Source: a bacterium
Lineage (GTDB): Bacteria; UBA8248
Assembly (NCBI GenBank): GCA_965204535.1
Contig: OZ241996.1
Span: 480,001-544,000 of the forward strand
Direction: 5' to 3'
Length of the DNA: 64,000 nt
The notes below the pieces were generated by a model that ran no database searches, had not been told where the DNA came from, and saw only the letters and a program-made list of their open reading frames with translations. Positions 8,935 through 14,615 of this stretch are shown here, one piece after another. The position numbers and the translations under genes are program-made. Within the stretch, counting starts at the first letter, position 1. Every line of letters begins with the position of its first letter.

Positions 8935-9783
8935 ATGACGCAAACCGATGGTTCCACGCTCGTTTCGGCGGCGTGGCTCGCTGAACGCCTGGATAATCCG
9001 AATCTCCACGTCATCGAGGTGTCCTCCGCGGGCGACGACGCCTCCTACCGCGAAGCCCACGTGCCGGGCGCGCACTGGTGGTTCTGGAAAGGGGCGCTCT
9101 GGCACGAGACGGACCGCGCGTTCGCAGCACCCGAAGCGCTGGCCGAACGTCTGGGCGGGATGGGCGTCGGGCCGGATGATGAAATCGTCCTGTACGGCGA
9201 GCCGGTGCAGTTCGGAACCTACGCCTTCTGGGTGCTCAGGATGGCGGGTTTTCAGAACCTGAAGCTGCTCGACGGCGCGAAGAAAAAATGGATGGCCGAC
9301 GGGATGCCCGTATCGAGCGATGCGCCGGAAGCCGCCGCCGTCGCACACACCGCGCCGGATGGGGGCGAGGTCTTAAGCGTGGGCAGGGACGATATTCGAG
9401 ATAAGCTGGGCGCGCCGGGCAGGGTGCTGCTCGACGTGCGCTCGCCCGAGGAATACAGCGGCGAGCGGGTGATGCCGCCTCCCGGTTTCGACCACGGGGC
9501 CGAGCGCGCGGGGCGCATACCGGGGGCCGCGCACCTGTTCTTCCGGGAACTGCTGAACGAGGACGACACCTATAAGAGCACGGAGGAGCTTGCCCGGATT
9601 CTCGGCGGCGCGGGCGCCACAGGTGATGACGAGATAGAACTCGTCCTCTACTGACGCTTGAGCCACCGGGCCAGTCTGGTCTGGTTCGCCATGCGGTATC
9701 TGCTGGGCCATGAAGACGTGAAGATTTACGACGGCTCCTGGACGGAGTGGGGGAGCATCGTCGGTTTCCCGATTGAGAGATGA
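8935..9783 (+). CDS. Two-domain rhodanese/sulfurtransferase (SseA/CysA-like) with probable selenocysteine at TGA 9652-9654
   Basis: HVPGA, LDVRSPEEY and GRIPGA motifs; reading through the TGA gives Y-U-RLSHRASLVWFAMRYLLGHEDVKIYDGSWTEWG..., the conserved rhodanese C-terminus, ending at TGA 9781-9783. Confidence 0.88.
9655..9690 (+). promoter_or_regulatory. Candidate bacterial SECIS hairpin
   Basis: ACCGGGCCA-GTC-TGGTCTGGT stem-loop at 9665-9685; apical G (followed by U) lies 20 nt after the UGA. Confidence 0.65.
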
Positions 9784-9976
9784 GGGAACCCCGTAAGTCG
9801 GCGCAGGGACAACCCTTTCGGGTTGCCTTTCAAGGAGAAAAGGCCGACCCCCCGCGAAGGGCCACCGGAATGACGGGCGTTGTCCTGCCCTCTGTGGTTG
9901 TCTTTTTTCGGACAGGCACAGAGGCCTCGGACAGCCCCGACGAGGGGCTGTCACTACATCTCCCTCGCCCCAGAAC

Positions 9977-10335
9977 CAACCCCCCCTACCCCCCCTTGTC
10001 AGGGGGGTAAGAAAGACCCCTCCCCCGACAAAAAAGGATCAACTCCCCCCTTGAGGGTCTGGCTTCCCGAGGGGAAAGCCAGACGAGGAAGCCGAACCGA
10101 CAGGTGAAGGCTGACTCGGTGGGGGGACATGCCACTGAAAAAACTCCCCCCACCGAATCGCTTGCGGGCTTCGCCCTTAGCTCTTCGACTCCCCCTCAAG
10201 GGGGGAGTGAAATACCTTGGGGGTCATTGCTGACTGATGAAGGAAGAACCAACGCAGGGGGGCTTTTCTTCCACCCCCTCGTTGGCGGGCATCGCCTTTT
10301 TTTACCCCCCTGACAAGGGGGGGTAGGGGGGGTTG
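9977..10335. repeat. MITE-like family A copy (TIR CAACCCCCCCTACCCCCCCTTGTCAGGGGGG) with a family B element nested inside
   Basis: Inverted termini at both ends; internal ACTCCCCCCTTGAGGG...CCCCCTCAAGGGGGGAGTG element at about 10042-10210. Confidence 0.85.
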
Positions 10336-10371
10336 CCTTTCAGGGTGAGGAGGTGAGCACGACCGGTCGGA

Positions 10372-10406
10372 AGAAAAAAGGCCGACACCCCGCGAAGGGC
10401 CGGCGG
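10372..10406 (-). terminator. Probable intrinsic terminator downstream of the lipoprotein gene
   Basis: GC-rich hairpin followed by a T-run on the minus strand. Confidence 0.5.
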
Positions 10407-10675
10407 AAGGCGGGACTTGCTGCGACACAATCCCTGAGGTCCGAGGCCCGGCCGAGCGGGGCGCCGGCCTGTCTGCATGACGAAAACAGGGGCCGCCCGT
10501 TGTTCCCCCTCCCGGCTCGAGGACTCAAACTCATAACCGGGAGCGGTACAGTTTGCTCCATCACGAGGGAAGCAACCAACGGGCAACCCCCTTTTCGCTC
10601 TACTTGAGATTTGCTGCCCGCCCGGGCCCCGGGGCGGTGAAGCCCCGGAAGCCTGAGGCGTCGTGCTCTTCGCTG

Positions 10676-12421
10676 CTACTGCTTGTTCACGCCGAAGGCG
10701 CCGACCATTTTGCCGGCCGTGCTGAACTCGGAATAGAACGTGCCGGTCCCGACCTTCGGAATGCCGCCGTCGTCATTGTCGTAGAGCGTTCCGGCCCACT
10801 CGCCGGAGGCGGCGGCGGCCGTCCCGCCCATGGTCCAGACCGTATCGTTGCCGTCCTGGTCTGTGCCTGTCCGAGTAATACCCCCGGTGGGAGCAACGGC
10901 AGCTTCCTTCAACTCGACGGACCAGTCACGCGACATGCCGTCCGCGCCCATGAACTGGTCGATGGTGCCCGTGATCGAATTGTCGGTGAAATCGGCTTTA
11001 AGCGTTGCCCTTGCGGTGAAGTGGCCTGCGTCGTTCGTTCCCCCGGTCGCGCTGTAGAGCGCGTACTTGCCGGCGGCGCCGCCCATGTAGGTCGCCGTTC
11101 CATTCAAGGTATCGAGGGCAGCGGCAGCCGGGACGGCGCCCTTGGTATCCGCGAAAGCGCTCGCGGTGAATTTGCTGCCGTCCTCGGACTTGTGGATCCA
11201 CCAGCCGTAGGAGGCGTAGATCGCGTCCGGCGTGCTCACGACCCTGGTGTTCGGATCGGCGGGCTTGAAGTTCCAGCCGGTAGCGCCTGCCGTAAACGTG
11301 TTGTCGGTCGCCGAAGCCACGGTGCCAAGCTGGAAGCCGTCAGCAGCTACCCGTGAGGCGCATATGGTATCGCCGGTGGGCGTGCAATACCAGGTGCCCG
11401 ACACCCCGTGATAGCTGCCGGCAATCATCACGCGCCGACCACTCTCCGCTAGCTTGAAGGTCTTGACCCCGGCACCCTGGTCGAAGCTCGGACTGGCGAT
11501 CCGCTTCTGGGTGGGCGCGTCGGTCGTCGAGTCGACGACCAGTTCTCCTTCATCATTCAACAGGTACTCGAATCCCGTGGCTGTCGCACTGCGAGTGCCG
11601 AACGGCTTGCCCTGCGTCGGCTCGTCCACGTTCGAGTAGACGACCGCTTCGTACATGCCGTCGTCGTCGGGCTCGGCCGTGTACTTCTTGCCCGCCCAGC
11701 CATGCAGGGCGGCTACCGTCGCATCCTTCTTTTCCGACAGAGCGACGGGATCGGCGGTGCCGATGCCCACCATGATGCGCGTGTCGACGGCAACGCCGGT
11801 GTCGGGAACGGCGGCGTTGTTGTACGCGGCGCCCCGCTGGTCCGCGGTCAAGGCGGTGTTAGCGGCCGTCGTTGTGGTGGCATCGCCACTCGGCGCAGCG
11901 ATGCCGGTATGGAGCTTCATGGCATCCGCCATCATGGCCGCATCCTTGGCCTTCTGCGCATCGTCCATCGCGGTCATGCGGGCCGTCTTGGCGGCGGCAA
12001 GCTGGGTTTCGAGCGCGGTGACGGTTCCGGTGTTCGCGGTTTTCTCCGCCGCCGGAACGTTCTCTGCCGCCGCGATCGCCGCTTTCGCGGCCGCGACCGC
12101 CGCATCGGCGGCGCTCACCTCGGCAGCGTCCGAGTCGTTGTCGACCTTGCCTACCGCCGTCTGGGCGGCCGCCAGTTTCATCTTGATGTCTTCACGCTCC
12201 ATAGCCAATTTCTCTGCCGCCAAATCTGCGGCTGAAGTGCATGTCTCATTGTCATTCCATCGGCCCCCCGCGTCCTCGCACGCCATCTGCGAGTCATCAG
12301 GCATCTCGGCCGGCGCTTGCGTAGAGCCGCCCCCGCCGCCGCAGCCGGCCAGCGTCAGCGCGAAGACCGCCGCCAGCGCGAAAGCGTAAAGCTTGTTTAT
12401 CGGTTTCTCTCTGAACATCAT
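10676..12421 (-). CDS. Surface lipoprotein with Ala-rich stalk and a transferrin-binding-protein (TbpB)-like C-terminal beta-barrel
   Basis: Lipobox LAGC followed by a Gly linker; Ala-rich helical region; ATYMGGAAGKY, LKADF..ITGTID and terminal MVGAFG; RBS AGGAGG. Confidence 0.8.
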   Translation of the reverse strand: MMFREKPINKLYAFALAAVFALTLAGCGGGGGSTQAPAEMPDDSQMACEDAGGRWNDNETCTSAADLAAEKLAMEREDIKMKLAAAQTAVGKVDNDSDAAEVSAADAAVAAAKAAIAAAENVPAAEKTANTGTVTALETQLAAAKTARMTAMDDAQKAKDAAMMADAMKLHTGIAAPSGDATTTTAANTALTADQRGAAYNNAAVPDTGVAVDTRIMVGIGTADPVALSEKKDATVAALHGWAGKKYTAEPDDDGMYEAVVYSNVDEPTQGKPFGTRSATATGFEYLLNDEGELVVDSTTDAPTQKRIASPSFDQGAGVKTFKLAESGRRVMIAGSYHGVSGTWYCTPTGDTICASRVAADGFQLGTVASATDNTFTAGATGWNFKPADPNTRVVSTPDAIYASYGWWIHKSEDGSKFTASAFADTKGAVPAAAALDTLNGTATYMGGAAGKYALYSATGGTNDAGHFTARATLKADFTDNSITGTIDQFMGADGMSRDWSVELKEAAVAPTGGITRTGTDQDGNDTVWTMGGTAAAASGEWAGTLYDNDDGGIPKVGTGTFYSEFSTAGKMVGAFGVNKQ

Positions 12422-12649
12422 TTAGCGAGTCCTCCTGAATCAATAGAAAAAGGGATTTTCAGTGAATTTCCGGCTTTCTCCGATTAACCTCCTTTCGTGA
12501 GCTTTCATTTCGGGCCTTCACAAACTGATTCGTATTTTCGGCCGCCTGAAACGCGGCGGAGTTGAACCCTTTCATGCTCCGGGCCGGTCGTTCCGCGAGA
12601 GGCGGATTCCTGCGGTATGCGTCCACCTCGAACCCGGGCTGGCGGCCGC

Positions 12650-12840
12650 TAATTACTGTTATCAGCCCCCAGAAACCCCGTTTTCCGCCGGAAAACCCGT
12701 TTCGGGGCGTATTCGGGCCGCAAACAAGCGAAAGATGAGCGAAAAAAGGCGCAAAACGGCCTCCGAAACCCCTCCGGGGACCCCGGAATTGCGCTTGACA
12801 TGGCCGTGAGAGGTGTTATATTTTCTGATAACAGTAATTA
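12650..12840. promoter_or_regulatory. Candidate invertible promoter segment flanked by 16-bp perfect inverted repeats
   Basis: TAATTACTGTTATCAG (12650-12665) and CTGATAACAGTAATTA (12825-12840); internal TTGACA (12795-12800), 16-nt spacer, TATATT (12817-12822) with an extended TG, on the + strand. Confidence 0.75.
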
Positions 12841-13020
12841 TCGGACTCTAGAAAAGCCGTTTCGGTCGGAATCGACCACCGCCGTCATGCCTGCGCGGAC
12901 ATATATGTCCGACATATATGCGGATGACGGTCCTTCTATGTATCGCCGAACCCCGGAATGACGATGGAAAGCCGCACCCAGGGTAGTGGGCCGTTCGTGA
13001 ACGGCCCTTGCCGGAGAAAC

Positions 13021-13475
13021 GGGCGGTTCGCGAACCGCCCCTACGAGGGTTGTTGAAAAACCCTCCGGTGGGGAAGGAATCCCGATCATCGAATTGTTCA
13101 CCGTAGGGACAGGCCCCTGTGCCTGTCCGAGGCCCCTGTGCCTGTCCGAGGTCGCAACCTGTCCCTACGGATACCTCGCCCCAAAGGCAACCCCCCCTAC
13201 CCCCCCTTGTCAGGGGGGCAAGAAAAAGCAAAACCCACTCAGCTCGGCGGGGGCGCATCGCCTTTTTATACCCCCCTGATAAGGGGGGGTAGGGGGGGTT
13301 GGTTTTATGGGATTTCCCTTTCAAGGGGGTTGCCATTACCCTCTCAGGGGGTTTTTCAGCAAGCCCCTCAAGGGGGGAGTGAATCCTCTCTGCCGAATAG
13401 CAAACAAGTCTGAAAGGGGGGTAGGGGGGCTGTCCTTTATCCCCCGAGGAGGGGGACTTTTCCAACAACCCTCTC
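13021..13475. repeat. Cluster of GTAG-type REPs, IS1182-like ends and a MITE family A copy (13188-13301)
   Basis: GGGCGGTTCGCGAACCGCCCCTAC, GTAGGGACAGG...CCTGTCCCTAC, GGGTTGTTGAAAAA and family A termini. Confidence 0.85.
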
Positions 13476-13522
13476 AAGGGGAGATGATGGAACCCTCGTA
13501 GCGTATCACAAAGACCCGTGCA

Positions 13523-14503
13523 TCATTTCACGGGATAGCGCGGCTCCTCTCCCCGCAGGACGCGCAACACGTCGGTCGCCGCCTTTCGCCGCATGTCCTC
13601 CAAAGCCGCCGTGCTGTACCACGCGCTGTGCGGCGTGACGCGGCAGTTGGGAAGGGCGAGCAGCGGGTGATTCGGACGCGGGGGTTCAACTTCCAGCACG
13701 TCGAGGCCCGCGCCCCGGATGGCGTTTCTCTTTAAGGCATCGGCCAGCGCATTCTCGTCCACGAGTTCGCCGCGCGCCACGTTGATCAAGACGGCGTCTT
13801 TCTTCATGCGCTCGAGCGCTTCGGCGTTCACCATGCGCCGTGTTTCGGATGTCAAGGGCGCGTGCAGGGAGATGTAGTCGGATTGCTCCCAAATACGTGA
13901 GAGCGCGGCGTTCTCGGCTTCCAGCTCCTCGAAAGCGGATTCTGACGCGAAAGGATCGTGCGCGATGACGCGCATCCCGAAGGCGCGCGCTTTTCCGGCG
14001 AGAGCCGCGCCGATCCTCCCGATTCCCACCACGCCCAGCGTCGCGCCCCGGAGCGGGGCGATGGGCCGGAGCGCGGCGATGCCCCAGCCGCCTTTTTCGA
14101 CTTCCGCCATTCCCCCTTCGAGTTTTCTGGCGAAGTAGAGGATGAGCGCCATGGCGTGATCCGACACCTCATCGACGCAGTAATCGGGTACGGAGGTGAC
14201 CTGGATACCCTTCGCCCTGGCGGCTTCCAGGTCGACGTTGTCCACGCCCACGCCGCCGCGCGCGAGAATCTTGCAGCGCTTTAGCTGAGAGACGACCTCT
14301 GCGGTGAAGGCGGGAATCGAGCCGATGATGACGCCTTCCGCCTCCGCGCAGAGTTCGACCAGGGATTCAGCGTCCGCTCCCATGCCCAGGCGCAGGCGGG
14401 AACCCAGAGGCGAGAGTATTTCCTCCTCGACCGTGGGGGGCCCGAAGCGCGTTCCGGCGACGGCGATGAGCGGGCCGTCTTTTGCGGGTGGACGTAAAAC
14501 CAT
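13523..14503 (-). CDS. D-isomer-specific 2-hydroxyacid dehydrogenase (PGDH/CtBP-like)
   Basis: GVGVDNVD, VPDYC, GIGRIG, INVARG, GLDVLEVEP and VTPHSAWY. Confidence 0.92.
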   Translation of the reverse strand: MVLRPPAKDGPLIAVAGTRFGPPTVEEEILSPLGSRLRLGMGADAESLVELCAEAEGVIIGSIPAFTAEVVSQLKRCKILARGGVGVDNVDLEAARAKGIQVTSVPDYCVDEVSDHAMALILYFARKLEGGMAEVEKGGWGIAALRPIAPLRGATLGVVGIGRIGAALAGKARAFGMRVIAHDPFASESAFEELEAENAALSRIWEQSDYISLHAPLTSETRRMVNAEALERMKKDAVLINVARGELVDENALADALKRNAIRGAGLDVLEVEPPRPNHPLLALPNCRVTPHSAWYSTAALEDMRRKAATDVLRVLRGEEPRYPVK

Positions 14504-14561
14504 GGTTCCCCCGGAAATCCGCGTTTTCGTGCGGCGGGAAGAATGAAAAAGCGCTTCGGCG

Positions 14562-14598
14562 TAAATAAAAACACCGCGGCCCGATGACCGCGGTGTTT
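14562..14598 (-). terminator. Intrinsic terminator after the ferredoxin gene
   Basis: AAACACCGCGG...CCGCGGTGTTT perfect stem followed by a T-rich tract on the minus strand. Confidence 0.7.
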
Positions 14599-14615
14599 GA
14601 ATCAGCAGGATGGAG

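Follow-up and report, generated by a model that had tools for sequence, protein, structure and literature searches.

The 64,000-nt stretch analyzed in this study (the window; C1:480001-544000 of the 4.56-Mb, two-contig genome G000) carries one member of a family of promoter cassettes that is almost certainly a genuine DNA inversion switch. The copy in the window is itself probably an active switch, which would be flipped in trans by a Cre-type tyrosine recombinase. Judged from its sequence features, the system appears to be a previously undescribed form of invertible-promoter phase variation.

The anatomy of the window cassette (Table 1) agrees with what a first-pass annotation, made from the DNA letters, had claimed. 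The perfect 16-bp inverted repeats that it reported (12650-12665 and 12825-12840) match each other exactly as reverse complements, and the dyad around each of them was recovered with the spacer CAGTAA at both sites. The promoter was also reproduced (11/12 matches) and faces away from the lipoprotein ORF into repeats, which is the OFF state that the annotation had read from the assembly. A promoter scan of 10000-14600 found this site only (it reads with two spacings; shuffle mean 0.7) and gave none on the minus strand. The -10 box falls within the inner arm of the proximal site. No PF00589 or family-recombinase match was found inside the 64 kb, also as claimed. By itself the repeat is unremarkable, since perfect 16-bp inverted pairs with 50-500 bp between them occur 11 times in the window, the other 10 mostly within G/C-run repeats. 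What exceeds chance is the family, with 17 copies in the genome and spacer identity within cassettes. In the surroundings of the cassette, no Rfam family reaches threshold at 10406-10675, and a rhodanese-like ORF (8935-9654) ends about 130 bp short of its apparent gene end (window 9654-9783), possibly through an in-frame TGA or a nonsense change.

Table 1. Features of the window cassette and its surroundings (positions in the window).
Feature	Position	Strand	Details
Lipoprotein cargo, 581 aa	10676..12421	-	Lipobox LAGC (residues 24-27), Cys27, Gly run after it
Conserved leader, distal site to ATG	12422..12638	-	GGAGG at 12435-12431; identified by sequence; kept in 12-14 genomic copies
Distal recombination site	12639..12672	-	20-bp core 12646-12665; spacer 12653-12658; arms extendable to ~14 bp
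Invertible segment between spacers	12659..12831		173 bp; 191 bp including the 16-bp repeats
Sigma-70-type promoter, TTGACA-N16-TATATT with TG	12795..12822	+	Conserved in 17/17 copies
Promoter-proximal recombination site	12818..12851	+	20-bp core 12825-12844; spacer 12832-12837
Flank (recombinase position in 8 sister copies)	12852..13480		Repeats only at the window copy
Conserved non-coding 3' flank, common to many lipoprotein cassettes	10406..10675		15 genomic matches, whole or part
REP-like inverted pair left of cassette	9977..10332		Repeat-arm search
REP-like inverted pair right of cassette	13183..13306		Repeat-arm search
15-bp imperfect direct repeat, left copy, bounding the 3.7-kb insertion	9777..9791	+	One copy at the G016 empty site
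15-bp direct repeat, right copy	13481..13495	+	14/15 identical to left copy

A genome search for further switches, proposed in the same annotation, returned 17 cassettes, most of them ahead of lipoprotein paralogues; the reversed control pattern of promoter plus site has no occurrence. Sixteen of these cassettes are complete, and contig C1 ends within the 17th. The invertible segment in the window is 81-95% identical to those of the 15 other complete copies. For comparison, 11 genomes of the genus supplied 50 complete cassettes, which are fetched copies and not a census; outside this set are three more complete cassettes (spacers all matching), together with those of G020 and G032. Exactly one candidate partner site, 178-200 bp away, was present in each cassette, and therefore the pairing of sites was not selected. 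The 6-bp spacers are identical at both sites in 49 of the 50 cassettes (11 genomes, 22 different spacers), against 3.0 on average and at most 11 equal spacers in 20,000 shufflings of partners, a comparison in which the relatedness of cassettes and genomes overstates independence and inflates the statistic, not the pattern. For G000 alone, equal spacers were found in 16/16 cassettes versus a shuffle mean of 1.4. Across the genomes compared, complete cassettes without a recombinase have matching spacers in 17 of 17 cases. The 7-bp inner arms are equal in 7/50 cassettes and the outer arms in 3/50. Identity of the overlap region is described as a requirement of tyrosine recombinases in the accessible part of PMC10250229. 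The spacers are not unique locus addresses: 13 different ones occur among the 17 copies in G000, and four, including that of the window, are common to two cassettes. All but one of the four arms can be extended to CTGG-NNN-CCG(A/C)TAA, resulting in a site of ~34 bp, and the remaining arm holds the -10 box.

The enzyme that would act on these sites is found beside sister copies. On the side opposite the cargo, a full-length recombinase gene is present at 8 of the 17 cassettes in G000, a truncated one at two and none at seven; across genomes, a full or partial Cre-type gene adjoins 33/51 cassettes. Among solved proteins, the recombinase is most similar to Cre and Tre (E 5e-13 to 1e-11; Cre 4.7e-13). 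Archaeal Xer/XerA ranks behind Cre (E 1e-5), and 17 Cre/Tre sequences were placed above Xer proteins in the search. Full-length copies have 311-354 aa, and the catalytic R-K-H-R-W-Y is intact in all eight from G000 as well as in 22/22 aligned full-length copies of the clade. The criteria used for the Cre type were 300-400 aa, catalytic R-K-H-R-W-Y, 13-15-bp palindromic arms, an 8-bp spacer and no more than two asymmetries. At the switch sites, A-N6-T fits the 8-bp spacer, three arms reach ~14 bp, and the asymmetries exceed two. A survey of the phylum (51 genomes) found the switch pattern in 13 genomes, the recombinase in 14 and both in 12; the three discordant genomes include G005, with a truncated gene beside its switch, and G020, with a diverged switch. 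Listing the tyrosine recombinases of G000, another suggestion of the first-pass annotation, yielded the Cre-type copies as well as XerD and XerC-like genes. Its idea of a trans-acting enzyme is in line with the eight intact Cre-type genes beside sister copies and none at the window copy, and action in trans is predicted.

In the proposed mechanism, a Cre-type recombinase from the eight intact genes would act in trans on the window segment, four monomers binding the four arms and exchanging strands across the spacer. In the OFF orientation, as assembled, transcription from the promoter would run away from the cargo and, for most copies with a recombinase, into a hairpin and T-run. In the ON orientation, the transcript would start ~240 nt before the lipoprotein ATG, a distance given by the earlier annotation and reproduced arithmetically when a start assumed at 12829 is mirrored. 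Bound recombinase would also dampen the promoter, since a site arm overlaps the -10 box, and the differing spacers would limit recombination between cassettes.

The recombinase-side flanks bear on how the enzyme may be expressed. A T-run lies 43-60 nt past the site in 34/51 of these flanks; a hairpin of about -21 kcal/mol often precedes the T-run, which may act as a terminator, as an upstream promoter element or in both ways. Directly after the T-run, (T/G/C)TGGAA-N16-TATACT or a close variant is present in 17 of 33 recombinase-bearing flanks and in none of 18 solo flanks; as defined, this second promoter motif is absent from the other 16 recombinase-side flanks. Its -10 box reads CATACT in 7/9 cassettes in which the gene is cut short after 80-100 codons. 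At the window copy, the flank contains no recombinase, second promoter motif or T-run. The hairpin, T-run and second motif, all pattern matches among related copies, weaken the idea of a promoter toggling between recombinase and cargo, and a fixed promoter of the recombinase itself, outside the invertible segment, is the likelier arrangement. In many copies the cassette is followed by a convergent, excisionase-like gene with an HTH_17 domain, such as a 232-aa gene with a C-terminal HTH_17 domain (L092:5334-6029) that converges with the recombinase; this gene is kept even beside a truncated recombinase. The HTH_17 protein might influence the directionality of inversion.

Both orientations exist among sister copies. 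The promoter points toward the cargo side in 7/50 cassettes (two in G000, three in G002, one in G014 and one in G005). A classifier derived from the 43 OFF copies scored both outer flanks as exchanged in 7/7 flipped cassettes, and the fourth base of the outer arm travels with the flank; therefore, the crossover lies within TAA-N6-TTA, with breakpoints in the repeats. At the level of sequence, these copies show that inversion occurred in the history of the cassette family. They are paralogues and could be locked states, and we infer flipping for the window copy. Four of the seven have no intact enzyme beside them. The orthologous position of the window cassette is empty in G002, G008, G012 and G016 and is occupied by ~2 kb of other DNA in G011. 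Among the matches listed for public assembled contigs (five runs), there was no opposite-strand joint at the sites, which is not evidence either way.

The first alternative to be weighed is that the family is a real switch and that the solo copy in the window is frozen OFF, its lipoprotein gene serving as a silent reserve. The window has no recombinase, OFF is the state of 43/50 cassettes overall and of 15/17 in G000, and ON was found in 1/18 recombinase-less copies. Against this, sites, spacer match, promoter and ORF are all intact in the window, spacers match in every one of the 17 complete solo cassettes, and the break in contig C1 falls within the spacer of another solo copy. We thus consider a frozen window copy unlikely and prefer an active switch operated in trans.

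The ends of the assembly deserve a separate description. The two ends of contig C1, which overlap by 4 bases, both fall inside the spacer of the distal site of a recombinase-less copy, and the flanks at these ends (L101 end, L100 start) are adjacent to each other in G002. Such a break fits mixed orientations having broken the assembly there, which we take as a hint only. Both ends of contig C2 repeat C1 sequence almost exactly (C1:191838-206713), probably as an assembly duplication.

The first-pass annotation had assigned the sites to the Xer/dif type, and this part of it is not supported: the linked recombinase is Cre-type, a XerD-type arm is lacking, and the genome has a separate dif-like site. 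The linked recombinase scores 41.7 and 37.1 bits against the XerC and XerD models, for which the cut-offs are 335 and 330. The dif-like site is a single 28-mer at C1:1394749-1394776 in G000, 14 kb from the GC-skew maximum, which is present once in 3/5 relatives searched (G002, G008 and G020; no more than three mismatches); the exact dif pattern was found in none of 22 relatives. In one respect the likeness drawn by the annotation is real, as CCGATAA, the innermost 7 bp of the switch arms, recurs in the left arm of the dif-like site. The right arms of the switch sites read TTATCGG or TTAGCGG where the dif-like site has TTATGTAAAGT; the dif-like right arm is without counterpart in the switch sites, and therefore these sites were not filed as dif. 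Like dif, they have a 6-bp centre between partly dyadic arms. According to the available text of PMC5357621, dif has a 6-bp central region between XerC and XerD arms, with inner bases ATAA and TTA as seen here. Unlike the single dif at the terminus, the switch sites are scattered over 17 cassettes and probably have their own recombinase.

It could still be proposed that host XerC/XerD, or XerC alone, inverts the segment and that the Cre-type gene is a passenger. The dif-like 6-bp centre (PMC5357621, in its accessible portion), the CCGATAA common to the site at C1:1,394,749 and the presence of XerD and XerC-like genes in G000 are compatible with this proposal, and given the common CCGATAA, XerC might bind the switch arms. 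However, the XerD-type arm is absent from every switch site, and across genomes the switch tracks the Cre-type gene, so often its neighbor, and not XerC, which occurs in 23/23 genomes of the genus as compared with 12/23 for the switch pattern. On these grounds the switch sites were rejected as dif, and inversion by the host Xer enzymes is very unlikely. A Cre-type recombinase remains our preferred enzyme.

Cassettes occupy different loci in close relatives, and that of the window belongs to an insertion of 3.7 kb, which has REP-like pairs and copies of a 15-bp imperfect direct repeat as its boundaries. In the genome, the REP-like family amounts to 287 arms, with 104 pairs facing inward, and its arms flank all seven recombinase-less copies in G000, on both sides or across the contig join. 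Elsewhere, a 198-aa Y1 transposase, which we take to be RAYT-like, lies among repeats (L260:5504-6100) beside a lipoprotein paralogue that lacks a switch and has a fixed promoter-like site. In G032, which belongs to another family, a 76%-identical recombinase occurs with a switch (L266:4093-4282) that has equal 7-nt spacers at both sites and faces a lipoprotein-like ORF with a twin-arginine motif. Among five distant lipoprotein-bearing genomes, switches were found in one, the gammaproteobacterial G041, and a single contig-end site in another. In G041, related sites surround a 1.4-kb segment containing a Cre-type gene (31-39% identity), spacers match in 9/9 complete pairs, and both orientations occur; some of its invertible segments are enlarged by insertion sequences (L246-L256), the cargo being a lipoprotein or an adhesin. 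Locus L112 of the same genome has a 51%-identical recombinase directly upstream of a co-directional lipoprotein gene, with no switch sites found. An inverted-pair screen with a strict 11-bp exact seed detected no clear switch at L112 or at 23/80 metagenome recombinase loci. Viral relatives of the recombinase were found at 41 loci (25-42% identity).

The different loci in close relatives, the linked excisionase-like HTH gene and the 76%-identical recombinase with a switch in another family could suggest that the sites serve mainly for integration and excision of the cassette, with inversion as a by-product, but the sites are inverted and internal rather than at insertion ends, no such dyad was seen at the empty sites inspected, and the insertion ends are repeat nests, so that this explanation is hardly tenable. 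Equally implausible is a reading of the dyads as paired operators of a repressor, for instance the linked HTH protein, with no DNA inversion: one dyad does overlap the -10 box and start site and an HTH_17 gene is linked to many copies, yet operators should conserve arms and not spacers, the opposite of what was observed, and the flipped copies with exchanged flanks largely refute it.

Inversion would control mainly putative surface proteins. The cargo of most cassettes consists of paralogous lipoproteins with a common signal peptide and differing bodies, and other cassettes precede fn3, cadherin-like, Calx-beta or RTX-repeat proteins. The lipoprotein in the window has 776 homologues, reaches the cut-off of no Pfam or NCBIfam family, and has a signal-peptide motif with 18 matches in the genome. 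It is likely surface-exposed. A C-terminal TbpB-like barrel is suspected: Atlas neighbors of the lipoprotein with TbpB_B_D score 0.85-0.87, which is no more than a lead, while searches of Pfam and of PDB sequences gave no match and the single-sequence model (pLDDT 33) is unusable. One gene for a Slam translocon is present (PF04575, E 1.6e-29, C2:795287), unlinked. At G000:C2:376561(-), the lipoprotein cargo of a recombinase-bearing cassette is frameshifted after ~80 codons. The host bacterium is probably sponge-associated, and a sponge metagenome run contains 0.28 of the words; homologues carry the labels Nitrospinae and Rhodospirillaceae. The available text of PMC9531527 lists fn3, cadherin-like and Calx-beta among the domain classes reported as enriched in sponge microbiomes.

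By its sequence organization, the switch would work like fimS and the Mpi-served promoters, and it appears to belong to neither of these enzyme families nor to Xer/dif. In E. coli, FimB or FimE, tyrosine recombinases encoded next to fimS, invert this short promoter-bearing segment and so switch a surface structure. The cassettes resemble it in having a short invertible promoter segment, a tyrosine recombinase and surface cargo. Fim enzymes have ~200 aa and serve one locus; the recombinase described here scores 22.9 bits with the NCBIfam model of tyrosine-type DNA invertases (cut-off 222). Mpi is a single serine recombinase, whereas here several tyrosine paralogues of the Cre type travel with the cassettes and spacers vary between loci. 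In Salmonella, the Hin segment has its recombinase gene inside, and Hin is a serine enzyme; in contrast, the G041 enzyme is a Cre-type tyrosine recombinase, and window-type cassettes keep the enzyme outside the segment. The G041 variant, with a recombinase gene inside its 1.4-kb invertible segment, is similar to the Hin segment (PMC8987985) in this layout. As far as the available portion of PMC10403206 describes the Bacteroides fragilis Mpi capsule promoters, they likewise are many scattered invertible promoters with surface cargo, an OFF bias at some loci and an enzyme acting at distant loci, the last being predicted here. Cre/loxP of phage P1 and mined Cre-type enzymes, in the portion of PMC10250229 at hand, provide the closest structural relatives and share R-K-H-R-W-Y, dyad sites of ~34 bp within 1 kb of the gene and spacers identical within a pair. 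In contrast to the 13-bp palindromes of loxP, the arms here are degenerate (a 7-bp core plus a looser CTGG, one arm holding the -10 box), and inverted site pairs lie around a promoter in up to 17 cassettes per genome. Cre itself resolves phage dimers, as the part of PMC8138268 consulted states. A literature search, with most subscription journals outside its reach, found no paper on Cre-type invertible promoters or sponge-symbiont invertons; GTDB genomes were scanned for invertons in PMC11602134, to judge from its accessible text, and its tables may include these segments.

A broader proposal, which we regard as having about an even chance of being right, is that a mobile Cre-type kit of sponge symbionts uses one recombinase pool to flip up to 17 promoters of lipoproteins and adhesins, with the 6-bp spacer as a locus address that keeps most switches apart, and moves between phyla in two layouts, with the enzyme outside or inside the segment. 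If true, this would be a natural Cre/lox network for combinatorial surface variation. Its recombinase class is familiar from the resolution of dimers and as a tool of genome engineering. Promoter inversion at many loci, of which gut Bacteroides are the best-known case, would here take place in a bacterium that is uncultured and probably lives with sponges. A new recombinase, together with 22 spacer variants found in nature, is a further product of the set. If the cargo is phase-variable, questions of host recognition and phage escape would become testable from long reads.
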